From an uncultured Anaerolineales bacterium (lineage in GTDB: Bacteria > Chloroflexota > Anaerolineae > Anaerolineales > UBA11858), in contig CAYVQU010000006.1 of assembly GCA_964453155.1 (NCBI GenBank), positions 5,059 through 69,058 on the forward strand: a stretch of 64,000 bases of DNA. Direction: 5' to 3'. The translations under genes were made by a program, and so were the position numbers. The notes under the pieces were generated by a model. It saw nothing but the letters and a program-made list of their open reading frames with translations. It was not told the origin of the DNA and searched no databases. This document shows, in pieces, positions 3,109 to 59,913 of this stretch; positions within the stretch are counted from its first letter, which is position 1; each line of letters starts with the position of its first letter.

Positions 3109-3314
3109 GGCCACCCAGAGTATACTTCGGAATCTTTGAGATGAATAGAAATCAGCCAGATTTTGGACAATAAGCTGTGCGACTGAACTCAATCACATTT
3201 CAAAGCTTATATTTATTACGGCGTTTTCCCCGATCCTGACGATTGTTACTGCGTGTTATTTTGGCAGTCAGGTATCATTGCGATCAAGGATAAACATAAA
3301 ATATTGAGGTCGAC

Positions 3315-4871
3315 ATGATTCAAATTGATGGCAACCAATTGACAATACCCCAAGTAGTAGCTGTAGCTCGTGAAGGTGAGCAGGTTGAGATTGCACCAAA
3401 TGCAATGGAAAAGATCAAACAATCCCGTACCTGGGTAGAAGAGATCATCGCGGCCGATGAACCCGTTTACGGGATCAATACCGGCTTTGGTATATTCTCC
3501 GATCGGAGCATTTCTGGTGAGGATGCGGCTAAACTAAGCCGCAACTTGATCATCAGCCACGCCGTTGCCACCGGCCCCGACCTGGCCCCCGAAGTTGTCC
3601 GGGCGGCAATGCTGATCCGGGCGAACACTCTGGCAAAAGGTTATTCTGGCGTCCGACCAATTGTGATCCAAACGATTTTAGATATGCTCAACTGGGGCGT
3701 GACCCCCATCATCCCCTCACAAGGATCGTTGGGATCTTCTGGAGATTTAGCCCAACTCTCCCATATGGCCTTAATCTTCACAACCGATGAGACTAATTCC
3801 GAGGTCGATTCAGGCTGGGCCGAATATGAGGGTCAAAAAATGTCGGGAAAGGCGGCTATGGCGGCCGCCGGCATTCCCCGAATAATATTGGGGGCCAAAG
3901 AGGGATTAGCCGTCAACAATGGGGCGACTTTTTCGGCCGCAATTGGGGCCTTAGCCGTCTACGACTCGGAAATCTTGTTAGAAGCCGCCAGCATCGCCCT
4001 GGCGATGAGTCTGGAAGCGATGTTAGGAGTCAAGTCGGCTTTTGACCCCCGCATTCACTTAGTTCGCAATCATCGCGGGCAGATCGCGGTTGCTGATCGG
4101 ACTTGTCAGTTCATCGCCGGAAGTACGTTGATCGAAGCAGCCGGCCGAGTGCAAGATGCCTATTCCCTCCGCTGCGCCCCGCAGGTGCAGGGGGCCGCGG
4201 TGGACGCCCTAATATTTATCAAAGACCGAATTTCGCGCGAGATCAATGCTGCCACCGATAACCCCTTGATTTTTGGGCCGGGCGAGGCCATCTCAGGGGG
4301 TAATTTTCACGGCGAACCCATCGGAATGGTCATGGATTTTCTCAGCATCGCATTAACGGAGGTTGCCGGGGTCTCCGAGCGGCGCACATTCCGCCTGACA
4401 GATGGCAAGCTAAACGCCGGTCTGCCGCCCATGTTGGTCGATCATCCCGAAGCCGCGGGCTTAAACTCGGGTTTGATGATGCCCCAATACACCGCGGCAT
4501 CACTAGTTTTGGAGAGTCAGGCCCTGGCATCCCCAGACTCAGTCTACTCCCTCCCCACCTCGGCCGAACAAGAAGATCATAACGCCAACGCGATGACCGC
4601 CGCGCGCCATGCGCGGAAAATCGTCACCAATACCACCCATGTCTTGGCCATCGAACTCTATTGTGCTGCCCGCGCGCTTGATTTGCGATTAAGACAACTC
4701 CCCGAGGCAAAGATGGGTCTCGGCGTGGCTGCAGCCTTCCATAAAATCCGGGAGGCTGTGCCGTATCAGGCTGGGGATGCCTGGTGGGGGCCGGAAATAG
4801 AGACAGTCCACGAGCTAATTTCTAATGGTATACTTATCGACCGTGTCAGGCAGATCGTTGACATTGTCTGA
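3315..4871 (+). CDS. hutH: Histidine ammonia-lyase (MIO-dependent aromatic amino acid lyase family)
   Basis: 518 aa. GSLGSSGDLAQLSH is the MIO-forming loop (Ser-Ser-Gly here). NLIISHAVATG carries a Ser-His pair of HAL type. GAGG ribosome-binding site (RBS) upstream. Confidence 0.85.
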   Translation: MIQIDGNQLTIPQVVAVAREGEQVEIAPNAMEKIKQSRTWVEEIIAADEPVYGINTGFGIFSDRSISGEDAAKLSRNLIISHAVATGPDLAPEVVRAAMLIRANTLAKGYSGVRPIVIQTILDMLNWGVTPIIPSQGSLGSSGDLAQLSHMALIFTTDETNSEVDSGWAEYEGQKMSGKAAMAAAGIPRIILGAKEGLAVNNGATFSAAIGALAVYDSEILLEAASIALAMSLEAMLGVKSAFDPRIHLVRNHRGQIAVADRTCQFIAGSTLIEAAGRVQDAYSLRCAPQVQGAAVDALIFIKDRISREINAATDNPLIFGPGEAISGGNFHGEPIGMVMDFLSIALTEVAGVSERRTFRLTDGKLNAGLPPMLVDHPEAAGLNSGLMMPQYTAASLVLESQALASPDSVYSLPTSAEQEDHNANAMTAARHARKIVTNTTHVLAIELYCAARALDLRLRQLPEAKMGLGVAAAFHKIREAVPYQAGDAWWGPEIETVHELISNGILIDRVRQIVDIV

Positions 4872-4936
4872 TAATTTTGATAAAATTCATCCAAAATATT
4901 TCTTTGGAATATTTACATTAACATATCTATCTAAAA

Positions 4937-5040
4937 CAAATTTCGGCGATTGGTTTGATTGAATAATCCTCCGGAATTTGATTAGGCTGTGCGGTAGGAT
5001 TAGCCAATATGAATAAAAAGTGCAAACCGCACAGCACTTC
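4937..5040 (-). repeat. Dual-hairpin element family 1, copy F (diverged)
   Basis: The minus strand reads AAGTGCTGTGCGGTTTGCAC..ACCGCACAGCCTAATCAAATTCCGG..CCGAAATTTG. Hairpin 1 is GCTGTGCGGT/ACCGCACAGC (10 bp). Hairpin 2 pairs 9 of 10. Confidence 0.6.
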
Positions 5041-5054
5041 ATGGAGATCATCCG

Positions 5055-8086: not shown

Positions 8087-8120
8087 AAAAAAGCAGAGAT
8101 CCCATGTCTCTGCTTTTTTT
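8087..8120. terminator. Intrinsic terminator after phaR (bidirectional shape)
   Basis: AAAAAAGCAGAGA-TCCCATG-TCTCTGCTTTTTTT. Confidence 0.85.
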
Positions 8121-8253
8121 GTGTTTCACTATTTCGGGCTATAGTAATCCGTCTCGAAAATACGCTAAATTAACTAGAATTGATTCAGGTTGCTTCACCC
8201 CTATGGGGTTCGCAATGACGTTAATCTAATTTGTTATGAGACTGACTACTTTA

Positions 8254-8363
8254 GCAGTTTTCGGAAAGAGTTTTGAAATAGAATATAAGTTCAAACCGAA
8301 AACTGCTAAGGTGTGGCGGTAGATTTTGCCAGTTTTACAAATAACCCAAACCGCCACACACTT
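8254..8363 (-). repeat. Dual-hairpin element family 1, copy C
   Basis: The minus strand reads (T)AAGTGTGTGGCGGTTTGGG..ACCGCCACACCTTAGCAGTTTTCGGTTTGAAC..TTTCCGAAAACTGC. Both stems are perfect (10 and 11 bp). It begins inside the TAA stop of the 8362..9060 gene. Confidence 0.85.
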
Positions 8364-9060
8364 AGGGGGTTTTAAGCATTCTTAGTGTGGCTTGAACCGT
8401 CGGGAGCAGGGATTTTTCATCTTTATCCGAGGGGGGGGCAAACGGCATACTGCGCTGGCCATTCATGCGAGATTCCAATCGGTCAGCTAATCTTTCCAAG
8501 GCGGATACCGCATCCAAAAAACCAACAATCCCGGTGAAATTGATGGCTTGGCGCCGAATTTCCAATGACAATTTGCGATCCAAAAATATTAAAGCCAGCG
8601 TACTCCCGGCAAATGAGCACACGTTCAGCACCGCGGCAACATCTGTCTCGGCGGAAGGATGGGCTTCCAAAATTTGAAGCAAACCATAAATCTTTCGGCG
8701 TCGCATCTGGGATAAATAGGGCGTTACAGCCTGGCGAATTTCACTCGGAGCGCCCCCGTTACCATTGCAGGCCCGCAGAACTTGTCCAACGGCCTGAACC
8801 GCCCGCAATCGCATGTCAATATCTTGATCTTCAATCCGAGTGGTCACCATATACGCCACCATCGGAGATATACAATGGGCGTCCAACTCAAAAATCTGAT
8901 CCATGGCTTGATGGCGCCGCTCTACTTGGGGAGAACTCAACAATTCAAGTGCATTCCAAATGGCCGGGAACAATTCACCAACCCGCTGAGACGGCTGCGA
9001 AATTTCAAATAACGTTGGTTGGGGTGATAGGGGCGCGGTACTCATGAAAGCAGTATACAA
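8362..9060 (-). CDS. Hypothetical helical-repeat (HEAT-like) protein
   Basis: 232-aa ORF with repeated helical-hairpin segments (..RLRAVQAVGQVL..). The family assignment is tentative. Confidence 0.45.
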   Translation of the reverse strand: MYTAFMSTAPLSPQPTLFEISQPSQRVGELFPAIWNALELLSSPQVERRHQAMDQIFELDAHCISPMVAYMVTTRIEDQDIDMRLRAVQAVGQVLRACNGNGGAPSEIRQAVTPYLSQMRRRKIYGLLQILEAHPSAETDVAAVLNVCSFAGSTLALIFLDRKLSLEIRRQAINFTGIVGFLDAVSALERLADRLESRMNGQRSMPFAPPSDKDEKSLLPTVQATLRMLKTP

Positions 9061-14202: not shown

Positions 14203-14270
14203 TAGGCGAAAAATGACGCCGAGGGGTCCCGGCGTATTATCCTAATTATGCCTGTTAAAACCTAAATGGG

Positions 14271-14382
14271 CAAGTGGGTTGGGCGGATTGGTGTCACTTC
14301 AAAACGTAATCACCTTTTCCGCCCAGCCTTGGCAATTTCCGGTTCAACGCGATTTTCATATCCAGGATATTTCCGAAAATTG
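14271..14382 (+). repeat. Dual-hairpin element family 1, copy G
   Basis: AAGTGGGTTGGGCGGATTGG..TTCCGCCCAGCCTTGGCAATTTCCGGTTCAAC..TTTCCGAAAATTGC. Stems are maintained with compensatory changes. Confidence 0.75.
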
Positions 14383-14504
14383 CACTAGATTTTTACGAAA
14401 AGAATACCATGATTGCTGCCAGTGTAAATGACACCTTCACAACAGAAAAATATAGATTCATACAATTCTGCAATGTAGATATTAATGTCGAGTTACACTT
14501 CTTC

Positions 14505-17036: not shown

Positions 17037-17059
17037 CTTTTTTCGCAGAACAAAAACCA

Positions 17060-17094
17060 GGAACCCGGTTGCTTGAAGCAACCGGGTTCCTTTG
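17060..17094. terminator. Bidirectional terminator between actP and tal
   Basis: GGAACCCGGTTGC-TTGAA-GCAACCGGGTTCC: a 13-bp stem flanked by an A-run and TTTGTT. Confidence 0.8.
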
Positions 17095-18800: not shown

Positions 18801-18839
18801 TAAAAAAGGACCCGGGTTGCTTGGAGCAACCCGGGTCCT
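18801..18839 (-). terminator. Intrinsic-terminator-like hairpin between tkt and rpiB
   Basis: The minus strand reads AGGACCCGGGTTGC-TCCAA-GCAACCCGGGTCCT followed by TTTTTT, running straight into ATGGAGAAAAATATG (the rpiB start region). The stem sequence is related to the 17060 hairpin. Confidence 0.7.
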
Positions 18840-21402: not shown

Positions 21403-22623
21403 ATGGTAACAACAACTGCCCCCCCCACTTCGTCATTTAGTAAAACCTTCTTCCAAAGCCTGTTTGACGGCACGGATGGCGAGCGATTCAAAGTTTGCCT
21501 GCAATGTGCCACCTGCAGCGGGGCCTGTCCATATGGCTATTTGATGGACTTTCCACCTGGAAGAATGATCTCGTACCTGCGGGCCGGCATGTTCGACAAG
21601 GTTCTGAATTCCGACTCGGTCTGGATGTGCGTATCCTGTTACGCCTGCACCGAAGTCTGCCCCTCGAAGATCCCCGTCACCCCCGGTTTGATGACCCGCG
21701 CCAAAGAAGAATTACTCCTGGCCGGGAATGTCCCCACCGAACTACAGAGCGCCCTGGAATTCTCCCAACGCTATGGCAATCCCCTGGGTGAATCTCCCCG
21801 CAAACGCTCGGAATGGGCTAAAGGCCTGGAACCAGCGGTCCCCATCATGCGCCGGGCCAAACGAGCGGTCGATGTACTCTGGTTCGTCGGCGATTATCCG
21901 TCCTACCACACTCGGGTTCAGCAGACCACAAAGGCCCTGTACAAAGTGCTCAATGCTCTGGGCATCGACTACGGCATCTTAGGGCCGGAGGAAAACAGCG
22001 ACGGCGATACCCAACGACTGGCAGGCGAACGCGGTTTGTTTGAAGTTTTGGCTGAAAAGAACGGCAAAGCTTTCAGCCGCTATGAATTTAGGGAGATCAT
22101 CACCAGTGATCCGCACGCCTATAATGCCATCAAGAATGAATACCCCGAACTGGGGATTGAATATCCGGTCAAGCACTACACCGAATTCCTGGCCGAACGT
22201 CTGGTCGATCTCAAGCCGTTGCTCAAGGAAGATGGGCTCAAGGAAGATGGGCAGGAATTAACCGTGACCTATCACGATCCCTGCTACTTGGGCCGGGCCA
22301 ATGACGTTTATGACCAGCCCCGCGCCCTGTTGGAAGTTATTCCCGGGGTGAAACTGATCGAGATGTCGCACTCTCGCACCAACAGCCTGTGCTGTGGCGG
22401 CGGTGGCGGCGGTATGTGGCTCGACGGGTTCCAATGGGAGAAAGCCCACGCTCGGTTATCTGAATGGCGGGTGAGAGAAGCTGTGAAAGCCGAAGCGGAC
22501 ATTCTGGCTGTCGCTTGCCCCTATGAACCCCCCCGCTTTGAAGACGCGACCAAGATGGTGGCTGGCGCGGAGGGACTAATTGTAAAAGATATCGTTGAAC
22601 TACTAGCAGACTCATTAAAGTAA
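21403..22623 (+). CDS. Soluble HdrD/GlpC-like Fe-S oxidoreductase (2x[4Fe-4S] plus 2 CCG domains)
   Basis: CLQCATCSGACP and CVSCYACTEVCP, then DPCYLGR and SLCCGGGGGG CCG motifs. ATG at 21403 with a GGAGG RBS. Confidence 0.8.
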   Translation: MVTTTAPPTSSFSKTFFQSLFDGTDGERFKVCLQCATCSGACPYGYLMDFPPGRMISYLRAGMFDKVLNSDSVWMCVSCYACTEVCPSKIPVTPGLMTRAKEELLLAGNVPTELQSALEFSQRYGNPLGESPRKRSEWAKGLEPAVPIMRRAKRAVDVLWFVGDYPSYHTRVQQTTKALYKVLNALGIDYGILGPEENSDGDTQRLAGERGLFEVLAEKNGKAFSRYEFREIITSDPHAYNAIKNEYPELGIEYPVKHYTEFLAERLVDLKPLLKEDGLKEDGQELTVTYHDPCYLGRANDVYDQPRALLEVIPGVKLIEMSHSRTNSLCCGGGGGGMWLDGFQWEKAHARLSEWRVREAVKAEADILAVACPYEPPRFEDATKMVAGAEGLIVKDIVELLADSLK

Positions 22624-24403: not shown

Positions 24404-26446
24404 ATGCCTGAACGAGTAAATTACTGGGGTATCCCCCACACCTGGGGGGAACCCGAATATTATGTCTACGCCGTCATGTTTTTGGCGGCCTTCATCATGC
24501 TGGTCCGGTTCTTCCTGCGCGCCAGAGTGTGGTGGCAGGTTGGGCGGAACGAAACCCGTTGGGATCAACTCCATCTGCGAGTCTGGCGTCTTATCCAATA
24601 TGGGATCATCCAGACCAAGGTCCTGAAACAGCGCTATCCCGGCGTGATGCATGTGGCGATTGCCTGGGCCTTTTTTGTCTTCTTCTTGGGGACCGCCCTG
24701 GCTACCGTCCACGATCACTGGTTCGAATTTTTGTCGGGCGACGTGCTGTACCTCTATAAATTTGTCCTGGATGTGTTCACGGTCATTTTCTTTGTGGGCG
24801 CCGGGATGGCCATTTATCGCCGCTACTACCAAAAACCCAAACGCCTGACCCTGGAACCCGAGTTCACCCGGACGTTGGTGCTGCTCACCATAATCGTTCT
24901 GGGCGGGCTGCTGACCGAATCCTTCCGGCTGGCCGTCCAAAGACCGGCTGGCGCCTGGTCATCCCCCGCGGGCTGGATTGTGGCCCAATTGTGGATTTTG
25001 ACTGGGGCTTCTGATGCCGCGTTGACGAACTGGCATCTGGTTATATGGGTCATCCACTTATTGACGGTGGCGTTCACCATCAGCATGCTGCCGGTCGGCA
25101 CCATGCTCCACGCCCTGACGGGGCCGATGAACGCCTTTTTCTCCAAACTCGATCGTCCGATTGGAGAACTGGCACCCATCCCGGTTACTGCCGGGGGCGA
25201 ACCAATCTACGCCAGCAAATTGAGCGATCTCTCCTGGAAGCAGCTCCTGGATGCAGATGCCTGCACCGAATGCGGCCGCTGCCAGGATGCCTGCCCAGCT
25301 CATGATGCCGGAACGCCGCTCAACCCCAAAGAGTTGATGCTGACAATCCGCGATACCTTGAAGGCCGACGCCCGCGCCCTGATCGGGGCTAATGGAGATG
25401 GTCCGGTCTTTGTCGGGGAGAAATATTCCGAAGAAGCACTGTGGGCCTGTACGTCCTGCAGCTCTTGCATCAAGGAATGCCCGGTGCTGATCGAGCACCT
25501 GGATACGATTGTGGACTTCCGCCGCTACCTGATCATGGAAGGCATGGTGGATTCTGAACTCCAATCGGCGCTGGCCAACTTGGGGCGTTACGGCAACTCC
25601 TTTGGGAAATCCGAACGGATGCGAGCCCGCTGGACCCGTAAGATTCGACCTAAGATCACAGATGTCCGCAAAAAACCGGCCGAATACCTGTGGTTTGTCG
25701 GCGATTACGCCTCCTACAGCCCATCGGTCACCGAAACGACGATGAAGACCGTCGAGGTCTTCCGCGCGGCCGATATTGATTTCGGCATCCTATACGAAGC
25801 CGAAGCCAATTCCGGCAACGATGTCCGTCGTGTCGGTGAAGAGGGCTTGTTCGAGATGCTGGTCGAGAAGAATATGATGGCCTTTGAGAAGAGCGATTAC
25901 CAGGCCATCGTCACCACCGACCCGCATTCCTACAATACGATCAAGAACGAATACCCCCAAAATGGGAACGGTGAAAAACCGGTCCTACACTATACCGAAC
26001 TACTGGATCAACTGATCACCTCGGGTCAGCTCAAGTTTACAAAGAATCTGGGCTACAAAGTCACCTACCAGGACCCCTGCTATCTCGGCCGATACAACGG
26101 CATTTACGACGCCCCTCGCCGGGTGATCGAAGCCACGGGTTGTGAAGTGATCGAGATGCCCCGCCACGGCGAACAGGCGTTCTGCTGCAGTGCCGGCGGT
26201 GGCCGGATCTGGATGGAAGAGGGCGAGATCGACCAACGTCCCAGTGAAGCCCGAATTAGAGAGGCCGCCAACCTGGAGGGCGTCAATGCCTTCGTGGTGG
26301 CCTGCCCCAAAGACATCACCATGTTCAAAGATGCGGTCAAGACCGCCGGCGAAGAAGATAATATCGTCGTCAAGGATTTGATCGATCTGGTCCATGAGGC
26401 GATGGAGTTGGATGTCGAATTGGTTGAAGAAGAGGTTACAGCCTAG
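24404..26446 (+). CDS. Membrane-bound Fe-S oxidoreductase: NarI/DsrM/HdrE-like TM domain fused to an HdrD/DsrK-like module (EMO-type)
   Basis: N-terminal multi-TM region with conserved His (GVMHVAIAW, VIHLLTV). It also has CTECGRCQDACP and CTSCSSCIKECP motifs, plus DPCYLGR and FCCSAGGG CCG motifs. Confidence 0.8.
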   Translation: MPERVNYWGIPHTWGEPEYYVYAVMFLAAFIMLVRFFLRARVWWQVGRNETRWDQLHLRVWRLIQYGIIQTKVLKQRYPGVMHVAIAWAFFVFFLGTALATVHDHWFEFLSGDVLYLYKFVLDVFTVIFFVGAGMAIYRRYYQKPKRLTLEPEFTRTLVLLTIIVLGGLLTESFRLAVQRPAGAWSSPAGWIVAQLWILTGASDAALTNWHLVIWVIHLLTVAFTISMLPVGTMLHALTGPMNAFFSKLDRPIGELAPIPVTAGGEPIYASKLSDLSWKQLLDADACTECGRCQDACPAHDAGTPLNPKELMLTIRDTLKADARALIGANGDGPVFVGEKYSEEALWACTSCSSCIKECPVLIEHLDTIVDFRRYLIMEGMVDSELQSALANLGRYGNSFGKSERMRARWTRKIRPKITDVRKKPAEYLWFVGDYASYSPSVTETTMKTVEVFRAADIDFGILYEAEANSGNDVRRVGEEGLFEMLVEKNMMAFEKSDYQAIVTTDPHSYNTIKNEYPQNGNGEKPVLHYTELLDQLITSGQLKFTKNLGYKVTYQDPCYLGRYNGIYDAPRRVIEATGCEVIEMPRHGEQAFCCSAGGGRIWMEEGEIDQRPSEARIREAANLEGVNAFVVACPKDITMFKDAVKTAGEEDNIVVKDLIDLVHEAMELDVELVEEEVTA

Positions 26447-35061: not shown

Positions 35062-36552
35062 ATGAAAAGAATCACAATTGATCCCATCACCCGCCTGGAA
35101 GGTCATGGCAAGATCGAAATTTTCCTCGACGATGATGGAAACGTCGAAAATGCTTACCTCCAAATCCCCGAGCTGCGTGGTTTTGAGCAATTCTCCGTCG
35201 GCCGCCCTGCGGAAGAGATGCCCCGGATCACCAACCGCATCTGCGGCGTCTGCCCGGAAGCCCACCACATGGCCGGGACCAAGGCGCTAGATGCCCTCTT
35301 CCACGTTGATCCCCCCTCGGTGACCAAGAAGATCCGTGAGATGTTCTACAACTCGTTCTACTGCACTGACCATGCCGTCCACTTCTACGCCCTCGGCGGC
35401 CCTGACTTCGTCATTGGCCCCGATGGACCTCCCGCTGAACGCAACATTCTCGGCGTGATCCATAAAGTTGGCGTTGATGTTGGGAAGCAGGTCATTCAAC
35501 ACCGCAAACGCAACCACGAAGTCATCCAGTGGTTGGGCGGGCGCGGCATTCACCCCGTCGCCGGGCTCCCTGGCGGCTGGAGTGTGCCCTGCACCGAAGA
35601 ACTCCGCAAAGAAATCGAGGCGATTGCTCGCCAAAACATCGATTTCGCAGAGTTCAGCCTACAAGTTTTTGCCGACATCGTGCTGGCCAATCAGGCCTAT
35701 GTTGACCTGATCGTCTCCGACACTTTCTCCCACTCAACTTACTCGATGGGGACCGTGGACGAGAACAATTTCGTCAACTTCTATGACGGCAAGATCCGCG
35801 TTGTGGACCCCGAAGGCGGCGAATTTGCCAAGTACGATGCCAAGGACTACGCCGATCACGTCGCTGAGCGCGTTGAACCCTGGTCGTACCTCAAGTTCCC
35901 CTATCTCAAGAATGTCGGTTGGAAAGGCTTCACCGACGGCATGGACAGTGGCGTGTATACTGCCACTCCGCTCTCCCGCCTGAATGCAGCCGACGGTATG
36001 GCCACCCCCAAAGCTCAAGAGCACTACGAGCAGATGTACGAGACCCTGGGCGCCGAGAAAGTCGATGGGAAATACAAACCCGTCCACATGCGCTTGGCCA
36101 CCCACTGGGCCCGCCTGATCGAAATGCTCTACGCCGCCGAGCGGATGCTCGAACTGGCCACCGACCCCGAGATCACCGATCCCAACGTGCGCGCCCCGAT
36201 CACCGAGACGCCCACCGATGGTGTTGGCTGCGTGGAAGCCCCCCGTGGGACTCTCACGCACCACTACACCACCGATGAGAACGGGATCCTGACCAAGGTC
36301 AACCTGATCGTCGGTACCACCAACAACAACGCCCCCATGGCGATGTCGATCAAAAAGGCTGCTCAGGGCCTGATCACCAAGGGCACCGAAGTGACCGAAG
36401 GTCTGCTCAACACCGTTGAAATGGCTTTCCGCAACTACGACCCCTGCATGTCCTGTGCAACCCACTCCCTACCCGGCCAGATGCCGCTCGAAATCACGAT
36501 CCGTGATAAAGAGGGTAATGAGCTGAGTAGAGGCAGTCAGTACACCGACTAA
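35062..36552 (+). CDS. mvhA: [NiFe] hydrogenase large subunit (MvhA-like, group 3c-like)
   Basis: RLEGHGKIEIF; L1 motif is RICGVCPEAHH; C-terminal motif is DPCMSCATH, followed by a 27-aa extension that a maturation protease would cleave. Confidence 0.9.
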   Translation: MKRITIDPITRLEGHGKIEIFLDDDGNVENAYLQIPELRGFEQFSVGRPAEEMPRITNRICGVCPEAHHMAGTKALDALFHVDPPSVTKKIREMFYNSFYCTDHAVHFYALGGPDFVIGPDGPPAERNILGVIHKVGVDVGKQVIQHRKRNHEVIQWLGGRGIHPVAGLPGGWSVPCTEELRKEIEAIARQNIDFAEFSLQVFADIVLANQAYVDLIVSDTFSHSTYSMGTVDENNFVNFYDGKIRVVDPEGGEFAKYDAKDYADHVAERVEPWSYLKFPYLKNVGWKGFTDGMDSGVYTATPLSRLNAADGMATPKAQEHYEQMYETLGAEKVDGKYKPVHMRLATHWARLIEMLYAAERMLELATDPEITDPNVRAPITETPTDGVGCVEAPRGTLTHHYTTDENGILTKVNLIVGTTNNNAPMAMSIKKAAQGLITKGTEVTEGLLNTVEMAFRNYDPCMSCATHSLPGQMPLEITIRDKEGNELSRGSQYTD

Positions 36553-36662
36553 GTGTTTGGCGGTTTGAAGCTGACCTCAAAGTCAGCATGAACTACCACC
36601 AACCCTAAGCAGATTTCGGTTTGAACGAGGCTTTAAGGGCCAAAGTTTTTTCCGAAATCTGC
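36551..36662 (+). repeat. Dual-hairpin element family 1, copy A
   Basis: (T)AAGTGTTTGGCGGTTTGAAG..ACCACCAACCCTAAGCAGATTTCGGTTTGAAC..TTTCCGAAATCTGC. Starts at the mvhA stop codon. Hairpin 2 is 11 bp perfect. Confidence 0.85.
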
Positions 36663-36685
36663 GTCCTAAGGGACAGAAAGACCAC

Positions 36686-36728
36686 AACCGAGTGCTGGGT
36701 GGGACCACTCATCACTCGGTTTTTTTTG
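36686..36728 (+). terminator. Intrinsic terminator after mvhA and repeat copy A
   Basis: AACCGAGTG ... CACTCGGTT followed by TTTTTTTT. Confidence 0.8.
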
Positions 36729-37380: not shown

Positions 37381-37472
37381 CAATTGAGCTGTTAATTTTC
37401 TGTCATAACGCGAATTGATCACTGAAAACTGAATACCTCGCTGCTGATCCAGTGGTCGCCCGAGGAGGTGCC

Positions 37473-37958
37473 ATGTTCTCTTCCGAGAAACTACAGCAAA
37501 TTCCTTATTTTTCAAAATTGAATGAGGAGCAAGTTGAATGTTTGCTGGGGGCTTCCTTGCTGCGCACTGCGAACCGCGGCGAATTTTTATTTCACCGCGG
37601 AGATTTTCTCCACCATTTTTATCTGGTCGAAACAGGGGAATTCGAAATTATTTTTGAATCGCCAAAACTTTCAGTTGAATATGAAAGCCACGGTCAACCG
37701 AGTCAACTTGAGACCGAACAGGTGAGGTTATCTCGAGTCGCACCCGGGCAAATTATGGGCTGGTCGGGATTGGTGCCACCACACCAGGCCACTTCAGGGG
37801 GCAGGGCGCTCCAAACCAGCAAAATAATCGCGTTTGACTGTCAAAAATTGCTCCAATATTTTGAGCAAGACTGCAATTTTGGCTTCCTAATGATGCAAAC
37901 AGCTGCTCTCGTAATTGGGCTGCGGCTCCAGGATATTTATAAAGGCGGTGCCGAATGA
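37473..37958 (+). CDS. cNMP-binding-domain-only protein (no HTH), paralog 1
   Basis: IPYFSKLNEEQVECLL...GEFLFHRGD...FYLVETGEFEI is the cNMP beta-barrel. The phosphate-binding cassette is replaced by GQIMGWSGLVPPHQATSG. ATG at 37473 with a GAGGAGG RBS. Confidence 0.75.
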   Translation: MFSSEKLQQIPYFSKLNEEQVECLLGASLLRTANRGEFLFHRGDFLHHFYLVETGEFEIIFESPKLSVEYESHGQPSQLETEQVRLSRVAPGQIMGWSGLVPPHQATSGGRALQTSKIIAFDCQKLLQYFEQDCNFGFLMMQTAALVIGLRLQDIYKGGAE

Positions 37959-38404
37959 TTACGCCCGAACTGATCAATCGCTATCCTTTTTTCGCAGACC
38001 TAGAACTCCATCAACTCGAGGCCTTGGCTCGAGTTGCAGAGGGGATTACGGCTGAAACCGGAGAAATGATCTTCAAAGAGGGGACTGAACTGCGGTATTT
38101 CTACATTGTGGTGGAAGGTGCGGTGGGGATTGTGCTCGAAAAAGAGGGGAAACCAGATACGGTCATCAGCGCAGTCGGACCCGGGCATGTCTTTGCCTGG
38201 TCAGCGTTGGTCCCACCCCATCTAGCAACTGCCAGTGCCAAAGCATTAACCCCGTGTTGGTTAATCACGTTTGACCGTAAAAAACTCATCCATGAATTCC
38301 AGAAAGACTGCCGCTTTGGCTACCGGATGATGGAAAAAATCGTCCAAATCAGTCGTGACCGGCTGTTGGATGCCCGGTTGGAGTCGCTGGTTTTCATGGC
38401 GTAA
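37955..38404 (+). CDS. cNMP-binding-domain-only protein (no HTH), paralog 2
   Basis: YPFFADLELHQLEAL...GEMIFKEGT...FYIVVEGAVGI with GHVFAWSALVPPHLATAS. Overlaps paralog 1 by 4 nt (ATGA). Confidence 0.75.
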   Translation: MITPELINRYPFFADLELHQLEALARVAEGITAETGEMIFKEGTELRYFYIVVEGAVGIVLEKEGKPDTVISAVGPGHVFAWSALVPPHLATASAKALTPCWLITFDRKKLIHEFQKDCRFGYRMMEKIVQISRDRLLDARLESLVFMA

Positions 38405-42583: not shown

Positions 42584-42617
42584 CTCCCGAAGGTATTAAG
42601 CCTTCGGGAGTTTTTTT
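42584..42617 (+). terminator. Intrinsic terminator after the HdrDE-like gene
   Basis: CTCCCGAAGG-TATTAAG-CCTTCGGGAG followed by TTTTTTT. Confidence 0.9.
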
Positions 42618-42662
42618 AGACGAAGATATTCCGCACATTGTTGAAAAAAGTGTGAGTACCCC

Positions 42663-42760
42663 AGACCCCAGGGGTTTTCAAAAACAACATTACACCCCCA
42701 AGCTGTGATGCTATTGACAGATTTCGATCATAGAGTGTTCCCCGGAAACCCCTGGGGTCT
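42663..42760. repeat. Terminal-inverted-repeat (TIR) element family 2, copy E1 (98 bp)
   Basis: AGACCCCAGGGGTTT (42663-42677) and AAACCCCTGGGGTCT (42746-42760) form a perfect 15-bp inverted repeat. The left interior ACAACATT resembles copy E2. Confidence 0.75.
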
Positions 42761-42789
42761 CCGATTTTACACTGTAATAATAATCAAAC

Positions 42790-43125
42790 TTATGAAAACA
42801 CCTGATCGTCAAAATAATATCCCCGGCCACGACAATTTTTCACATATCTGGGATTGGCAGGATCCGGCTCGATTTTCCGGCGCAGACGAGCAATATTGAT
42901 GCGTAATAATTCAGGATAATCATACCCAGACCCCCAAACTGCGGCCAATAATTCATCATTCGATATGGGTTTCCCAGGCCTTTCAAGTAAACGCCCCAAC
43001 AAGCGGAACTCAGTCGGCGTTAGTTTAGATTCTTTCCCAACGATCGTTACAGTCTGATTTTTCACATCTACCAAGACTGCGCTCATCATTGGAATATTGT
43101 GTTGCATTTCTGACACATTCATCAT
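42790..43125 (-). CDS. Stand-alone OmpR/PhoB-type winged-helix DNA-binding protein (no receiver domain)
   Basis: LTPTEFRLLGRLLERPGKPISNDELLAAVWG...INIARLRRKIE...VKNCRGRGYYF. ATG at 43125 is preceded by AGGAGG; the ORF-track start is 43170. Confidence 0.75.
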   Translation of the reverse strand: MMNVSEMQHNIPMMSAVLVDVKNQTVTIVGKESKLTPTEFRLLGRLLERPGKPISNDELLAAVWGSGYDYPELLRINIARLRRKIEPDPANPRYVKNCRGRGYYFDDQVFS

Positions 43126-43450
43126 GGTATCCCTCCTAAAACTACTATTTGGCAACATTGAAATCGTCATTTTTCTCCTATCTAAAAGTATCTCATCGAT
43201 AAGACCAATATTAGACTGGTTATTCAGTTGAGCAATATTTTTTTAAAGAATCATACGAACCATATGGGATCAAAAAAAACAGTGATGAGGCTAAAAGGGT
43301 CATTCGCAACTAGGGCGCGCGAACAACCCCGTTCTACCTTACCATTTTTAATTTTGGCATATATTGGGTTCGATTGAAATACGTAAAATTACGGTATTGG
43401 GGGATTGGTTCGTTTGTTGGATAGTTGGTTGGTTACGACGAACGGTGGGA

Positions 43451-44107
43451 CTATTTCATTCCCGGCGGTTGAATCCCTCTTTCAATAGCAAACCGCACCA
43501 ATTCGGCAGTAGATCTGAACCGCAGCTTCTTCATCAGATTAGCCCGGTGCATTTCTACAGTTCGGGGACTAAGCGAGAGACGTTGCGCAATCTGCCGGTT
43601 GGTCAGGCCTTCAGTAACCAAATATAAGATCTGTTGCTCGCGGAAAGTTAGGGTCTTCTGGCGCGCGGACGAATCTTTGATTGCTAATTGTTGATAGTTT
43701 TCAAGTAGATTTTCCGATAGAGGCGGGCTGAGATATTTTCGTCCTTGCAGAACAGCATTTATGGCTGCAATTAAATCTGAGGAGGCTGAGCGTTTTAGCA
43801 CATAGGCTTGGGCTCCTGCCTGAAGGGCCTCGGCCACATAGGCTTCTGTAGCGTGCATAGACAGGATGATCACTTGGGTCCGCACAGCCGCGCGTTGAAT
43901 CTGGCGGGCAATTTCCAAACCGCCGATTCCCGGAAGCACCAAATCAAGTATGATGAGCGCGGGTTCATATTTTTTAACTAGGGGCAAGACGGCCAAACCG
44001 TCTCCGGTTTCAGCGATTATTTCCAAAGCAGGTTGGGCACTAATCACCCCCCTAAGACCATCCCTAACGATGGGATGGTCATCTGCCAAAATGATTTTAA
44101 CGCTCAT
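43451..44107 (-). CDS. NarL/LuxR-family response regulator
   Basis: MSVKIILADDHPIVRDGL..LIILDLVLPG is the REC domain; LTFREQQILYLVTEGLTNRQIAQRLSLSPRTVEMH is the LuxR HTH. The internal ATG at 44107 overlaps the kinase stop. Confidence 0.9.
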   Translation of the reverse strand: MSVKIILADDHPIVRDGLRGVISAQPALEIIAETGDGLAVLPLVKKYEPALIILDLVLPGIGGLEIARQIQRAAVRTQVIILSMHATEAYVAEALQAGAQAYVLKRSASSDLIAAINAVLQGRKYLSPPLSENLLENYQQLAIKDSSARQKTLTFREQQILYLVTEGLTNRQIAQRLSLSPRTVEMHRANLMKKLRFRSTAELVRFAIERGIQPPGMK

Positions 44108-46589
44108 AATCGTTTTCATCTCCGAGAACATCAATTGGCAGGGTAGCCATAATCGTGGTGCCATCACCCGGGGATGATCCGATTTCAAATTGGCCACCCA
44201 ACCAAGTAACCCGCTCACGCATTCCTATAATGCCCCCCGCAGTCGTACTCTGGAGTACGGCTTCATGATCAAATCCTACGCCGCGATCCTCGATTTGAAT
44301 ATGGGTTTGTCGATCAGCCACCCAGAGCTGCACCGCCACTTGATCTACTTTGGCATGGCGAGCAACATTTGTGAGGGCTTCTTGAACAATCCGGTAGGCT
44401 GCAATTTCAACTGCAGGAGAAAAGCGTTGATTCAAATTACGATGATCAAAATCAACCTGGATTTTCATGCGTTCCGCATACCGCTGGAAATGCCAGTTCA
44501 AGGTTGGTAATAACCCTAAATCGTCCAGTAATGTGGGTCTCAAATCCAGAGAAAGTTCATGCACCTTATCCAGCAATTCGATTGCGATTTCTTGGGCATT
44601 CCGAATAGATTGGGCCAGCAATGAAGGCTGATTCAAACCAGTATCCAAAAGCAAGTTGAGACCGGTGAGTTCTTGTCCAATTTCATCATGAAGTTCATGC
44701 GCAATGCGCCGTCTTTCGATCTCCTGGATCTCACCAATCCGCTGAGATAGTGCTTGGGCGCGTACCCGCATATCGTGTTCGGCTTTCTCGGCCCGTTTTC
44801 TTTGGGTAATTTCGGTAGCAATCCCCTCTACAATCAAGCTCTGATCTTCAGTACGGATTCCAAAAGAACGATCTCGGAACCAAAGCCATTTTCCTTGGGC
44901 ATTCTTGATACGGTACTCGATATCAAAATTTTCTCTATTCGCCACAAGCTCAATAACTTTGATAATTTTTTCTTGATCATCTGGATGAATACTCTGTTTC
45001 CACAACATCGGATTTTCGAGGAGATATTCGGGAGAATACCCTAAAATCGATTCGACCCCTTGGGAATAAAAAAGGCCTCCGGTTTGTAACGAAAAAGCAT
45101 AAACAATATCGGGCGCACCTTCAACCAGATTACGATAACGCTCCTCACTCACTTTGAGTCGTGATTCAATCTGAATCCGATCATCAATTTCGCTCCTGAG
45201 TTTGCGATTTAATTGGTCTAGTTTTTGGGTGCGTTCAACTACTAGCCCCTCTAGATGTTCGCGATACTGGTGTAACTCATCCTGAGTTTGTTTCAGTCTC
45301 GTAATATCTTGAACAAAGGCATAAGTCACAATTTCATCATTCAATTGCAATGTGGTAACCGTCACATCCATTGGGAATTCGGTTCCATCCCGCCGCAGCC
45401 CAGATATCCCGTATCGTGAGGGAACCTGCTCCCCACGTTCCCTGGTGAGATTATAATTGCGAACTTTTTCTCGACTTCCGGGGGGAAGGCGGTCGATTAA
45501 AGAAGTGCCTTTCATTTCATCGGGATGGTCAAAACCGAACATCTGCGCGCAAGCCCAATTGACATACAGATAAGTCCCGTCTTTTGAAACCGCCACAGCA
45601 GTGGGCGAATCATTAAATAAAGCTCGATATCGAGCTTCGCTCTCCCTTAGGGTGATCTCAACTCGCTTACATTCCAAAATCTCGCAATTGGCAGCTTCGT
45701 AAAGTTGGGCATTGCGGATCGCGATTGCGGCATGGTTGGCAAATAAACTCAACAGCTCAGCATTTTCAGGGGTGAATTTTCTCGGCGGATCCGCAAAAAC
45801 ATCCAAGACACCCAAAAAATCGGACCCTGAACATACCGGGACACCGACATCCGCCCGAGAGCCTAAATATTCCACCCAGTGTGGTAAATGACCTTCCCAG
45901 TTTGAATAATCAGAAATGATTAAAGGTTCGCCCGTTTCCCATATCTGACCACTGAAACCTTCACCGCGCTGAATATAAGTATTTTGCGGTACTGAGGCGA
46001 TACCCGCATAAATCGAATATTGGAGGCAATCCAGATCTGGCTGATAAAGGGCGATACCGCCCGCGGTCCCAGCCAGCAATTCAACTGCTTTTGAAACAAT
46101 CGACTGTAATAGTTTCTCTAGATCAAGCTCTGCCGCGATTTCTAAATTGATTGCCTGCAGTGCTGCTAATTTGGCAGTCTCCCGGGTTAAGGACTCTTCC
46201 GCGTTTTTTACCCGCAGTCCCGCCTGCACTCTGGCCTGTAACTCACGATTAGATACTGGCCGGGCGATGTAATCATCAGCCCCGGCTTCCAAACCGGCTG
46301 CCCGTTGCTCAGAAGTGATCTCTGCACCCGAATACAAAATGACGTAAATATCTTCCAATTCGAGATCCGACTTGATTTGCTTACAAACCTCAATCCCATG
46401 GCGATCCGGCAAGATGATGTCAAGGAGCACCAAATCAACCGGGATCGTCCGGGCTAACTCGATCGCTTCGGTTCCAGTTTCAGCACCGATACAGGTATAG
46501 CCGCCGCGGCCTAAGGTCTGCAAGGTCGCGGTGAGATTCTCGCGAGTATCATCGACTACTAGAATCTGAGGGTGATCAGGCGAGGTCAT
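44097..46589 (-). CDS. Hybrid sensor kinase REC-GAF-PAS(x2-3)-HisKA_3-HATPase
   Basis: ILVVDDTRENL..LVLLDIILPD is the REC domain. GAF and PAS segments follow. The H-box is HELHDEIGQELTG (NarX/LiaS type). RGVGF is present. ATG at 46589 preferred. Confidence 0.85.
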   Translation of the reverse strand: MTSPDHPQILVVDDTRENLTATLQTLGRGGYTCIGAETGTEAIELARTIPVDLVLLDIILPDRHGIEVCKQIKSDLELEDIYVILYSGAEITSEQRAAGLEAGADDYIARPVSNRELQARVQAGLRVKNAEESLTRETAKLAALQAINLEIAAELDLEKLLQSIVSKAVELLAGTAGGIALYQPDLDCLQYSIYAGIASVPQNTYIQRGEGFSGQIWETGEPLIISDYSNWEGHLPHWVEYLGSRADVGVPVCSGSDFLGVLDVFADPPRKFTPENAELLSLFANHAAIAIRNAQLYEAANCEILECKRVEITLRESEARYRALFNDSPTAVAVSKDGTYLYVNWACAQMFGFDHPDEMKGTSLIDRLPPGSREKVRNYNLTRERGEQVPSRYGISGLRRDGTEFPMDVTVTTLQLNDEIVTYAFVQDITRLKQTQDELHQYREHLEGLVVERTQKLDQLNRKLRSEIDDRIQIESRLKVSEERYRNLVEGAPDIVYAFSLQTGGLFYSQGVESILGYSPEYLLENPMLWKQSIHPDDQEKIIKVIELVANRENFDIEYRIKNAQGKWLWFRDRSFGIRTEDQSLIVEGIATEITQRKRAEKAEHDMRVRAQALSQRIGEIQEIERRRIAHELHDEIGQELTGLNLLLDTGLNQPSLLAQSIRNAQEIAIELLDKVHELSLDLRPTLLDDLGLLPTLNWHFQRYAERMKIQVDFDHRNLNQRFSPAVEIAAYRIVQEALTNVARHAKVDQVAVQLWVADRQTHIQIEDRGVGFDHEAVLQSTTAGGIIGMRERVTWLGGQFEIGSSPGDGTTIMATLPIDVLGDENDYER

Positions 46590-47199
46590 AATATCCCTTT
46601 CCGCCGCAGGTCTGGCATAAAACCTGTTCATTGATATGGATTTCACGTTCGTTCATAATTTCTTCTTTACAAGTCTCACAGATCACCCGCCGACCAGCGA
46701 CGCTAATTATTTCATTCATAGATGATTTCAAGCAAATGGGTTGTACCGCGAGCAATTCGGAAACCGGCATGACCTGATAACCTTCTAATTGAGCCTGGTA
46801 TCTGGTATTCGAATGCCAGGCATACGCCCAGGCTCGAGTGCGGACATCGGGTTTAGGAGCCAGCCGCAGCGCTTGATGGGTATCGGTATTCACAAATGTG
46901 GCCGCCACTTTGCCAAAATCGACGATGCGCAGTGTTCGGTGGCCGATGGTACAACCAGTCGCCACTTCCACCGCGTCCGCGAAACAACCATCGGTTTCAA
47001 CGATGACCATCAGGTGTCTCTCAAGATCAGAACCTGACAGGTTCAACAAAGCCAGGCCATACAACCCCATCCGCACCCCCAAAACCTGCCGCGGGCAAAG
47101 TTTAGTATGCCGAACAGCGGACCGGGCCAATAAGGTTGATAAGTTTGCCTCATCAGTCAAATCATTTTTTATGCTGAAATCTGATTGTAAAACAGTCAT
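46576..47199 (-). CDS. FmdE-family protein with C-terminal zinc ribbon
   Basis: LCPRQVLGVRMG...ETDGCFADAVEVATGCTIGHRTLRIVDFGKVAATF is the FmdE fold; CETC...CQTCGG is the ribbon. ATG at 47199 with a GGAGG RBS. Confidence 0.75.
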   Translation of the reverse strand: MTVLQSDFSIKNDLTDEANLSTLLARSAVRHTKLCPRQVLGVRMGLYGLALLNLSGSDLERHLMVIVETDGCFADAVEVATGCTIGHRTLRIVDFGKVAATFVNTDTHQALRLAPKPDVRTRAWAYAWHSNTRYQAQLEGYQVMPVSELLAVQPICLKSSMNEIISVAGRRVICETCKEEIMNEREIHINEQVLCQTCGGKGYYDLA

Positions 47200-47269
47200 T
47201 GCAGCCTCCAATTTTTCCGGATACTACGGTCCCCCAAATCCAGTTTCCGGGAAAATGGCTCAAATAAAT

Positions 47270-48181
47270 TTAGAATCCTTCCCGCCGATAAAATCCATAA
47301 AAAAGATACCGACCTAACACTTCCGAAACTACAATCAACCCAAACCCCAAAATAATAATGAGCAAACTTAACTCCAAACCCAACGACCCGATCAAAATGC
47401 CGGCGCCACTCCATAACGTCAAAAATCGCCCCGCCAGTATTGGGCGTAAACCTGTCCACACTAATCGACTGCTTTCAGCCGCAATACCACGCTGACCTTT
47501 CAAGCTCAGGATTGTTATGAGATAGATTCCCGTTTGGATCCCTGCCAATATAATGATCAGCATTATCGAAACCTGAAATACATCTGGTGGCATCATATTC
47601 ACTGCATAAATTTCATCCCAAAATATCGACCCCGTCTGAATTCCAGTCGTCAGTACTAGGCCTAACAAAAATGTGGTGGTAAAGAAAGTGCCTGGCGTAC
47701 CCCAATTGTTCCAGGCTGGAACCGTGCGGAGCATATATAATTTCGAGATGACCGCGACCAAACCTAAACCGCTGGTCATACCTAAAAGGATCAAGACCCC
47801 ATCGAAGATGGAGAATTCAGCGCCATAAAATTGACGCAATAGCAAGCAAAAATTCACGATTCCAAAAAATCCCCCGAACAAGGCTTCGCGGCTTAACCAG
47901 GATGTCCGAACATTGGTAAATGAAAACCGAGCATTTAGCGGACGCCCTAAGTGCATTCCGGCAGACCCGGTTCCTAAAACCAAACAAGTCAGTGCAATCG
48001 TAAAAAAAACCTGGAGATAACCTGGCCCAGCAAAAGAGTACCAACCTGGAAACAACAAAATTGCCAATCCCCCACTGACAAAAATCCCCACCGACATCTG
48101 GGTCAAAATCGTAAAGAACACCAACTGCCACTCATGACGGATGCGCCCATTAGGATGGTTGGTGCCACCGCGTGCAACCAT
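47270..48181 (-). CDS. DmsC-like membrane anchor subunit
   Basis: HEWQLVFFTILTQMSVGIF followed by about 8 TM helices. Start is 1 nt after the dmsB-like stop. Confidence 0.7.
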   Translation of the reverse strand: MVARGGTNHPNGRIRHEWQLVFFTILTQMSVGIFVSGGLAILLFPGWYSFAGPGYLQVFFTIALTCLVLGTGSAGMHLGRPLNARFSFTNVRTSWLSREALFGGFFGIVNFCLLLRQFYGAEFSIFDGVLILLGMTSGLGLVAVISKLYMLRTVPAWNNWGTPGTFFTTTFLLGLVLTTGIQTGSIFWDEIYAVNMMPPDVFQVSIMLIIILAGIQTGIYLITILSLKGQRGIAAESSRLVWTGLRPILAGRFLTLWSGAGILIGSLGLELSLLIIILGFGLIVVSEVLGRYLFYGFYRREGF

Positions 48182-48182
48182 C

Positions 48183-48803: not shown

Positions 48804-48838
48804 AATAAGTGGAAAATGGTTAAAAATATTTCTGATAG

Positions 48839-48903
48839 AGACCCCAGGGGTTTTACAACGTTCAGGTCCATCTGCTTGCGACCTTTGCAAACCCCTGGGG
48901 TCT
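48839..48903. repeat. TIR element family 2, copy E2 (65 bp)
   Basis: It has the same 15-bp termini, AGACCCCAGGGGTTT and AAACCCCTGGGGTCT. It fills most of the dmsA-like/dmsB-like intercistronic gap. Confidence 0.75.
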
Positions 48904-48906
48904 GGC

Positions 48907-51273: not shown

Positions 51274-51416
51274 AAATCACCAGTAAAAAAAGATGATTAA
51301 GTTTACCAATGCCATGTCTATTTTGATAGGTGCCAGTTATCATCTTTGACTACTCAGGAGTATAATATTGCCGCTGGGCAGGTAAGGATGCAAACTCTCC
51401 ACTAAGGAATTAAAGC

Positions 51417-53562: not shown

Positions 53563-53565
53563 CGG

Positions 53566-54442: not shown

Positions 54443-54572
54443 GGAATTGCCTTAATTTTCTCACACGAAACCGCAAAGTGTACTAAATGCGGTTATTTTG
54501 TTCGTTGGCTAGTGGGTTGGGGGGTTGACCAGCCAACTGACCAAACCTTTCTATGCGTCTTTTCACGAGTAT

Positions 54573-55541: not shown

Positions 55542-55713
55542 TTTTTAAAACTTATTTATTGCGAATGGGGTGAATGGGCCAATAAGTAGCTTATCTCGCA
55601 AGTTTCAAGAAAATAATTAAAGATGCTTCGCACGCGATCACATGAGTAATTTCAGCATACTGCAGATGTGCTCAGCATGACATAATTTCAGCTTCTTGCG
55701 AGACCGGCCAAAT

Positions 55714-55823
55714 AAGTGTGTGACGGTTTGTAGTTGAAAATAAACCAACCTATTTTACCGTCACACCCGAGCAGATTTCGATTTGAACACAATTTTCATT
55801 TCAAGATTCTTTCCGAAATCTGC
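55714..55823 (+). repeat. Dual-hairpin element family 1, copy B
   Basis: AAGTGTGTGACGGTTTGTAG..ACCGTCACACCCGAGCAGATTTCGATTTGAAC..TTTCCGAAATCTGC followed by TTTT. Antisense to the flanking transglutaminase/MoxR genes. Confidence 0.85.
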
Positions 55824-55856
55824 TTTTCACGAATTTGGGGACTTCTTTCGCTACAT

Positions 55857-59634: not shown

Positions 59635-59672
59635 AGGTTGGCGGTGTGATGTATCGATGCTAATGAGGGGCA

Positions 59673-59781
59673 GTCGGCAGTTTGAAGGAAAATGGCAAAT
59701 TTTGCCGCACAGCGGCTTTTCAAGTTTAGCAGATTTCGGTTTGAACCTGCTAATAGTTTTCAAGTACTTGCCAAAATCTAC
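59673..59781 (+). repeat. Dual-hairpin element family 1, copy D (degenerate)
   Basis: GTCGGCAGTTTGAAG..TGCCGCAC..TTTAGCAGATTTCGGTTTGAAC..TTGCCAAAATCTAC. The 18-nt core is identical to copy A. The right arm of hairpin 2 pairs 9 of 11. Confidence 0.6.
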
Positions 59782-59913
59782 ATAATTAAATCATCAAGTG
59801 ACAATCAATTTCAAAGTTCGCGTGGTTTTTATATTATACGGGAGAACTTGGGTTAATGATCATCAGATTGCCCGTTTCGGTGGGAATCAGCATGGTTTAG
59901 GCCAAGGATGGGA

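Follow-up and report, generated by a model that had tools for sequence, protein, structure and literature searches.

A previously undescribed family of two-hairpin intergenic repeats, probably mobile DNA, in an uncultured Anaerolineae lineage

Introduction

The intergenic element near 8.3 kb of this stretch raises a question of interpretation. It belongs to a repeat family in which paired substitutions preserve the stems of two hairpins and the loops drift, and such covariation might reflect a function of the RNA in the host or the requirements of a DNA element that moves between sites. A first-pass annotation had described six copies and read their covariation as selection on structure, in either RNA or cruciform DNA. 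To our knowledge, the cataloguing of small structured repeats has been poor outside Proteobacteria and Cyanobacteria. The sole Chloroflexi entry in the survey of REP sequences is a GTAG family in Thermomicrobium roseum (PMC3733652).

The window, by which we mean the whole 64,000-nt stretch of DNA that was analysed, is ordinary chromosome. It encodes histidine ammonia-lyase (HAL), an Fe-S assembly protein, PhaR and a phasin, pentose-phosphate enzymes and ETF, followed in our inventory by an Hdr/Mvh-type hydrogenase cluster, cytochrome b/Rieske proteins, a molybdopterin oxidoreductase and a MoxR/DUF58/transglutaminase module. The nearest named homologues of these genes lie in Anaerolineales, Anaerolineae and Promineifilaceae MAGs, and several JGI and ENA metagenome assemblies contain the window sequence at 99.98-100% identity. 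The population is present in JGI 3300013119, 3300007511, 3300009378 and 3300009128 and in the ENA SUTE22-1 assemblies. Every substantial ORF has either an ordinary Pfam assignment or none, and no transposase, Y1 included, is encoded in the 64 kb, as had been claimed from the letters alone. Here we describe the ~115-nt two-hairpin repeat family, which is previously undescribed, and weigh what kind of element it is.

Copies of the repeat in the window

MAFFT alignments recovered a shared ~115-nt block in all six intervals proposed as copies. A covariance model (R1) was constructed from five copies, the sixth being left out, with a hand-set structure of 10 + 12 base pairs, and the window was scanned with filters off. 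R1 scored 97.5-121.6 bits on the five copies and 27.7 bits on the sixth; across the whole window no further match was better than E~0.3, save reverse-strand echoes of the same copies. An 18-nt motif from hairpin 2 occurs four times in the window, compared with 0.11 occurrences expected by chance. All six copies are intergenic.

The focal copy (8250..8366, minus strand) is intact and scores 121.6 bits. Its hairpin-1 arms lie at 8359-8350 and 8320-8311 and its hairpin-2 arms at 8307-8296 and 8264-8253, and its RNA fold has an energy of -43.5 kcal/mol (z = -8.2). Three further intact copies lie on the plus strand, at 55711..55827 (118.9 bits; fold z = -7.3), 36548..36666 (108.4 bits) and 14269..14387 (100 bits; fold z = -3.1). 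The fifth, at 4932..5042 on the minus strand (97.5 bits), is the most divergent of the intact copies and has no TTTGAAC in loop 2. The fold z values of four intact copies (-8.2, -7.3, -4.6 and -3.1) are far below those of shuffles, and that of the 4.9-kb copy is -2.7. Pairwise identity among intact copies is 64-72%. The 36.5-kb copy is identical in four other metagenome contigs.

The sixth copy (59668..59785, plus strand) is a decaying relic. R1 matches it only at 59694-59785, and its fold is no better than shuffles (z = -0.34). The 5' arm of hairpin 1 is degenerate, a 12-nt insert separates the hairpins, and hairpin 2 is broken by two G>A changes in its 3' arm. The positions given by the first-pass annotation for the six copies hold to within about 5 nt, with the family now resolved into five intact members and one decayed member. 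The compensatory changes that it quoted are real, except that its hairpin-2 example from the 14.3-kb copy contains one C x A mismatch.

Structure and covariation of the two hairpins

Each copy consists of two head-to-tail stem-loops with stems of 10-13 bp and loops of ~30 nt. Minimum-free-energy folds place these as two separate hairpins, leaving the 5' and 3' ends of the element unpaired with each other. Standard pairs make up 92.7% of stem cells in the five-copy alignment, compared with 81% in shuffles, and none of 500 shuffles reached the observed value. As a control on the same alignment, sliding the 3' partners by 1-3 columns reduced pairing to 31-49%. Among the five copies, eight of the 22 pairs have changed on both sides, six of ten in hairpin 1 and two of 12 in hairpin 2, and the fraction of paired cells is 96% and 90%, respectively. 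When the alignment is extended by the sixth copy and by a partial one from a relative, 10 of 22 pairs have changed on both sides and 92% of cells are paired. Computed from six or seven related sequences, these covariation statistics are descriptive. Both stems are under selection.

The loops, which had been described as unrelated, are not entirely so. Loop 1 has a pairwise identity of 46% and loop 2 one of 55%, compared with 73% in the stems, and the loop starts, TTTG in hairpin 1 and TTTGAAC in hairpin 2, are 88% identical and form the best-conserved part of the element. Because of these conserved loop starts, the 5' arms of both hairpins end in CGGTTTG. Conservation of the loop starts above that of the stems points to sequence-specific contact with a protein. 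Conservation begins 4-5 nt 5' of hairpin 1, with a block TAAGTG at the start of the element, and ends at the foot of hairpin 2; (T)AAGT precedes hairpin 1 and CCTTA or CCTAA precedes hairpin 2.

Several other properties of the element were evaluated. Hairpins 1 and 2 do not appear to be duplicates, as unit-to-unit alignment was no better than shuffled controls in four of five copies and only CGGTTTG was common. Assignment of a functional strand was attempted from G-U pairs and from folding energy and gave no signal from either: by our own count the element strand has one G-U wobble and the complement has four, and folding energies are equal on both strands. Neither GTAG nor CGTC is consistently present at the hairpins on either strand. 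When the left end was compared with the reverse complement of the right end, only AG-N7-CGG was common (5-6 of 12 matches), so the element has no real terminal inverted repeat. Its ~30-nt loops and the lack of a consistent T-run after the element are also not those of an intrinsic terminator.

Genes and terminators around the copies

Relative to the flanking genes, three copies are sense and three, those at 4.9, 55.7 and 59.7 kb, are antisense to their neighbours. The 4.9-kb copy follows a promoter-like site (4858-4886) and precedes the ribosome-binding site of the Fe-S assembly gene, whose start codon is at 5055. The 14.3-kb copy separates divergent genes, for a Usp-domain membrane protein on the minus strand and for DUF485 and a solute symporter on the plus strand. 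The 55.7-kb copy is flanked by the MoxR-like and transglutaminase-like genes.

Two copies are joined directly to a stop codon. The stop of the 227-aa gene upstream of the 8.3-kb copy, TAA at 8364-8362, forms the first three bases of TAAGTG, and the copy lies between this stop and a bidirectional intrinsic terminator common to the convergent genes (8087..8119, inverted repeat I13). The 36.5-kb copy lies in the 3' UTR of the gene for the NiFe-hydrogenase large subunit, whose stop codon TAA (36550-36552) is the start of the element. An intrinsic terminator read from the alignment downstream of this copy (36686..36727, plus strand; AACCGAGTG...CACTCGG followed by T8) places the copy between the stop codon and the real terminator. 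Most copies should share a transcript with the flanking genes and so may affect the mRNA; we treat such effects as by-products.

The order of orientations along the window, two minus-strand copies followed by four on the plus strand, was considered as a trace of a replication origin or terminus. This was rejected, as GC skew is negative on both sides of the switch, including in 5.2 kb beyond the window. Those 5.2 kb, to the left of the window, contain no new copy, and the 69 kb as a whole contain no GC-skew switch.

Empty sites in relatives

Eight relatives, reached through homologues of three window proteins, were compared with the window. In this comparison the copies are insertions that the relatives lack, with four of the sites short or empty there. 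The gap between the hydrogenase gene and HycI is 261 nt in the window and 19-94 nt in four relatives (L067, L082, L083 and L086) with hydrogenases 84-86% identical. A fifth relative (L066), with a hydrogenase 94% identical, reads ...CACCGAC TGA TCCAAAC... and then its own terminator; no element is present within the 131 nt that its contig holds after the hydrogenase stop. This stop is TAA in the window and in L083, and TGA in L066, L067, L082 and L086.

The site after the 227-aa gene gave a similar result. The window has a gap of 306 nt, compared with a TGA stop, 35 nt and then a homologous terminator in a relative with 70% identity (L087/L088), and with a gap of only 2 nt in a relative with 55% identity (L089). 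The terminator homologous to 8087..8119 is thus present in L087 and the element is absent there. Both stop codons embedded in an element (36550-36552 and 8362-8364) are TAA, while the nearest relatives with empty sites use TGA in a C-TGA-T context. The HAL/Fe-S gap of 183 nt in the window compares with 88 nt in L084 and with 89 nt in the closest relative (JGI 3300072015, 227-aa protein 85% identical), the last compared by gene coordinates only. On its 84-kb contig this relative has gaps of 124 nt after the 227-aa gene and 669 nt upstream of DUF485. Finally, the MoxR and transglutaminase genes, 315 nt apart in the window, overlap by 4 nt in L069, L082 and L083.

Insertions of ~110 nt fill roughly a tenth of the intergenic space in this region of an uncultured Anaerolineae lineage. 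They have separated genes that in relatives overlap and probably are coupled in translation, have rewritten stop codons and have added strong hairpins to 5' and 3' UTRs.

Distribution of the family and the partial copy in L084

The first-pass annotation had suggested a covariance model built from the copies and a search of relatives. R1, which gave the five strong matches in the window, was applied with filters off to ~130 kb of DNA from the eight relatives and found one partial copy, compared with six copies in 64 kb here. The high density that had been claimed holds, and motif searches over all fetched loci agreed with the model scans in finding only one family member in the relatives. From these scans, the family is near lineage-specific. 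A weak R1 match in L086 (16.5 bits) was rejected as a family member, being an ordinary terminator-like hairpin.

Database searches were consistent with this distribution. Against Rfam release 15 there was no match at gathering thresholds, in line with the earlier impression that the element is no known Rfam family. Rfam searches in E-value mode returned sub-threshold matches, mostly to generic hairpin models (microRNA precursors and snoRNAs), the best at 31.8 bits against a threshold of 61. The 18-nt hairpin-2 motif gave 59 single matches among GTDB species representatives, in unrelated taxa and at about the number expected by chance; the two cyanobacterial matches were read and contained no elements. 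A gapped motif gave two chance matches, both in one unrelated sequence, among JGI metagenome contigs, a collection that evidently lacks the source population. A motif scan of IMG/VR and blastn against PLSDB plasmids returned nothing related.

The single partial copy lies in L084, behind an ortholog of the 227-aa gene that is 42% identical and aligned to the last residue. Directly after the TAA stop the sequence reads TAAGGGTTTTGCGGTTTG-loop-ACCGCAAAAGCC, followed at once by CCGAAATCTGC. Hairpin 1 is intact and differs from that of the window copy by two-sided changes in two pairs, and hairpin 2 is represented by its 3' arm only. Loop 1 of this copy is slightly closer to the loop of the positionally equivalent window copy than to those of the other copies. 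L085, a second strain of this distant relative, carries three uncompensated substitutions in the region of that 3' arm. As the two intermediate relatives (70% and 55%) are empty after the 227-aa gene, the copy was either present in the ancestor, with two later losses, or arose by independent insertion at the same stop codon.

The two strains differ at a second point. At L084 13745-13800, downstream of the partial element, L084 and L085 carry the loop of a terminator hairpin in exactly opposite orientations (AGAGATCAATTCT versus AGAATTGATCTCT). This difference is a hairpin-loop inversion polymorphism.

Comparison with known small repeats

Classical bacterial MITEs such as Correia/NEMIS, ERIC, RUP and Nezha are ~100-150 nt, non-coding, polymorphic and co-transcribed with their neighbours, and some insert at TA-containing targets near gene ends. 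They are defined by terminal inverted repeats that pair end to end and by target-site duplications. The two-hairpin element is likewise small, non-coding, multi-copy and variably present. However, each half folds on itself and the ends barely match, so that the terminal inverted repeats of a TIR-type MITE are missing.

REP sequences and the BIMEs and REPINs composed of them, which are associated with RAYT, are intergenic high-copy hairpins with complementary stem changes between subfamilies and variable spacers in the dimers; they often lie in 3' UTRs between stop and terminator and persist for long periods in a lineage (PMC3733652, PMC3337134). The family described here shares these features. 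A REP is defined by a stem of 5-13 bp, a loop of 2-20 nt and an unpaired GTAG or CGTC tag, and REP dimers are head-to-head or tail-to-tail, with head-to-tail negligible (PMC3733652). The stem length of 10-13 bp falls within this definition, but the ~30-nt loops, the missing tag and the head-to-tail order do not. The two hairpins are also unlike in sequence, and in all six copies hairpin 1 is followed by hairpin 2, with CGGTTTG on the same strand in both. A REPIN comprises two inverted REPs that form one long hairpin, in contrast to the two separate hairpins observed here.

The closest anatomical parallels that we compared are the ends of IS608 (PMC3201880) and the PATEs (PMC7290912), which are IS200/IS605 derivatives reduced to the ends and mobilised in trans by TnpA, a Y1 HUH enzyme. 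As in PATEs, the element is small and non-coding, carries a different hairpin at each end in a fixed order, lacks a true terminal inverted repeat, and has the hairpins as its conserved part; in the few sites compared, a consistent target duplication also seems to be lacking. PATEs insert beside a short preferred sequence, and a similar preference is suggested here from few sites, with T before AAG in three of five copies and in L084. A subterminal hairpin is thus present at each end, with an atypical loop size of ~30 nt compared with a few nucleotides, and the conserved block ends at the hairpin feet, leaving no room for offset cleavage. The family is new, with an unusual architecture of a known general type.

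Origin and mobility of the family

With moderate confidence we interpret the family as lineage-specific, ~115-nt non-autonomous mobile repeats of the REP/MITE/PATE type, belonging to uncultured Anaerolineae (Chloroflexota) and mobilised in trans. The lineage-specific abundance, the empty sites, the presence of both orientations, the decaying copy and the neighbouring ~110-nt insertions described below together form the signature of a non-autonomous mobile repeat. As the copies are inserted between genes, a small parasitic mobile element of a familiar kind is most likely, rather than a new regulatory RNA.

Such an element would be moved in trans by a transposase with its gene elsewhere in the genome, reading the hairpin shape and CGGTTTG at each end. 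The enzyme would most likely be an HUH/Y1 single-strand transposase, as for the IS200/IS605-derived PATEs or REP-RAYT; an HUH transposase acting on ssDNA is favoured by the hairpins at both ends and by the lack of a convincing terminal inverted repeat or of a consistent target duplication. Insertion seems to favour a context of T followed by purine-A, and the two copies at stop codons would have replaced the last two bases of the codon with their own AA. If only copies with intact hairpins and CGGTTTG were copied again, compensatory changes would build up along lineages of active elements. Covariation can arise by this selective recopying and so does not show a function of the RNA in the host. 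The earlier proposal of selection on structure holds for the stems; the choice that it offered between RNA and cruciform DNA gives way to a reading that points to a mobile DNA repeat, with no host RNA function implied. Selection on the recognition structure of a mobile element would be the better explanation of the covariation, which calls for caution in covariation-based RNA discovery in metagenomes. The copies are absent from close relatives yet have diverged from each other by ~30-35%, suggesting an old and diverse pool of source copies. Should the mobilising enzyme be found, tandem hairpins with large free loops would widen the known substrates of hairpin-reading transposases.

Several observations count against parts of this interpretation. 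The copies, at 64-72% pairwise identity, are less alike than a recently active family would suggest, the L084 partial copy after the same stop fits an old conserved element as well as a repeated hit, and no transposase or full-length parent element was seen in the window and the adjoining 5.2 kb. Against the choice of an HUH enzyme in particular, the ~30-nt loops are much larger than those of known IS200/IS605 ends or REP hairpins. The extent of conservation, from only 4-5 nt 5' of hairpin 1 to the hairpin-2 foot, leaves little room for cleavage sites offset as in IS608.

The sequences flanking the copies bear on a different enzyme. CTAAG...CTAAG flanks the 36.5-kb copy, with a near match (CTAAG...CTAAAG) at 8.3 kb; CTAA, CTAG or TTAG, which are YTAR-like, occurs within 0-4 nt of the 3' end in four of five copies; and T precedes AAG, giving TAAG, at the 5' ends of three of five intact copies and of the L084 partial copy. 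The exact repeat at 36.5 kb and the YTAR-like tetramers would fit a target-duplicating DDE transposase instead, and the element, being small, non-coding and variably present among relatives, could be a classical cut-and-paste MITE moved by such an enzyme (e.g. of the IS5 or IS630 type), with a TAAG/YTAR-like target duplicated and the hairpins internal rather than a recognition signal. We consider this unlikely. Flanking duplications are absent at 55.7 kb and mismatched at 14.3 and 4.9 kb, that is, in three of five copies, on element boundaries that are not nucleotide-exact because the intergenic DNA of the relatives is too diverged. The TAAG or TTAG on the 3' side could equally be an outer extension of the hairpin-2 stem (CTTAGCAG/CTGCTAAAG at 8.3 kb). 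The ends have only AG-N7-CGG in common, and the paired substitutions demonstrate that the stems themselves are maintained.

The maintained stems could also be explained by host selection on a cis-acting RNA that stabilises the mRNA, is processed by an RNase or insulates cistrons from one another, in which case the strong covariation would reflect locus-by-locus selection for folding. Five of the six copies are placed for likely co-transcription with flanking genes, two lie between a stop codon and the true terminator, and the hairpin-1 module recurs with two compensatory differences after the orthologous stop in L084, where the flanking protein is only 42% identical. Yet three of six copies are antisense to the flanking genes, and neither the folding energies, equal on both strands, nor the G-U pairs give a strand signal. 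The two intermediate relatives are empty after the 227-aa gene, the L085 arm has accumulated its three substitutions uncompensated, the 59.7-kb copy is decaying and no Rfam family reaches its gathering score. We therefore judge a host RNA to be as improbable as the classical MITE.

A combination of mobility and host use can also be drawn from the same observations, namely that the element targets stop codons, bringing its own TAA, and that the host then keeps its hairpin-1 module as a 3'-UTR structure that is more than parasitic. This is an unlikely proposal. If it were true, the copy after the 227-aa HEAT-like gene would predate the split from the 42% relative, its stem kept by compensation at a fixed locus. 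The element would then represent a new class of cis-regulatory RNA or ssDNA structure in Chloroflexota, possibly moved by an unrecognised hairpin-reading enzyme.

The element could also be a site at which a host protein binds the DNA, for example a nucleoid protein, gyrase or IHF as in proposals for BIMEs, and that spread by recombination and not by transposition. Such a site would account for CGGTTTG in both hairpins, more conserved than the stems, and for the lack of orientation preference, but it is very unlikely, as it leaves the need for stem pairing unexplained, offers no mechanism for the precise appearance inside stop codons and does not fit the near absence of the family from relatives with the same gene content.

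Neighbouring repeats and other variable segments

Other small segments lie beside the copies of the mobile repeat. A second repeat family of ~115 nt has copies at 55593-55705 and 62845-62957 that are 64-76% identical and whose ends pair (TCTCGCAAG...CTTGCGAGA). The first of these lies immediately 5' of the 55.7-kb two-hairpin copy, and the two together make up most of the 315-nt spacer between the MoxR and transglutaminase genes; the other overlaps the 3' end of a GT87 glycosyltransferase ORF. Between the 8.3-kb copy and its terminator, ~110 nt at 8140-8250 (minus strand) are absent in the 70% relative and are bounded by an inverted repeat (AGTAGTCAGTCTC...GAGACGGATTACT). This segment may be a third MITE-like insertion, single-copy in the window. 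The presence of other MITE-like blocks of ~110 nt beside two of the two-hairpin copies suggests that this genome accumulates small insertions.

Two related palindromes of 33 nt, perfect or near-perfect, occur at 17059-17091 and 18807-18839 with terminator-like tails (GGAACCCGGTTGCTTGAAGCAACCGGGTTCC and GGACCCGGGTTGCTTGGAGCAACCCGGGTCC). The differences between the two are complementary, suggesting a small REP-like terminator family. Upstream of the HAL gene, at 3210-3254, a strain that is otherwise 99.99% identical (L072) has an unrelated AT-rich segment of 83 nt in place of the 43 nt of the window.

On a larger scale, a block of ~12 kb (~42600-54500) lies between the HdrD-like and MoxR genes, an interval that is 0.03-1.9 kb in four relatives. 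It contains two-component regulators, FmdE, a DmsABC-like molybdopterin oxidoreductase, an MFS transporter, a GGDEF response regulator and a carboxylesterase, and one of the four relatives (L086) has a homologue of the carboxylesterase in that interval. Two tandem cNMP-binding genes at 37452-38404 share 66% DNA identity over 164 nt, and two Hdr-like CCG-domain genes (21858-22192 and 25669-26006) share 58% over 338 nt; both pairs look like old local duplications.
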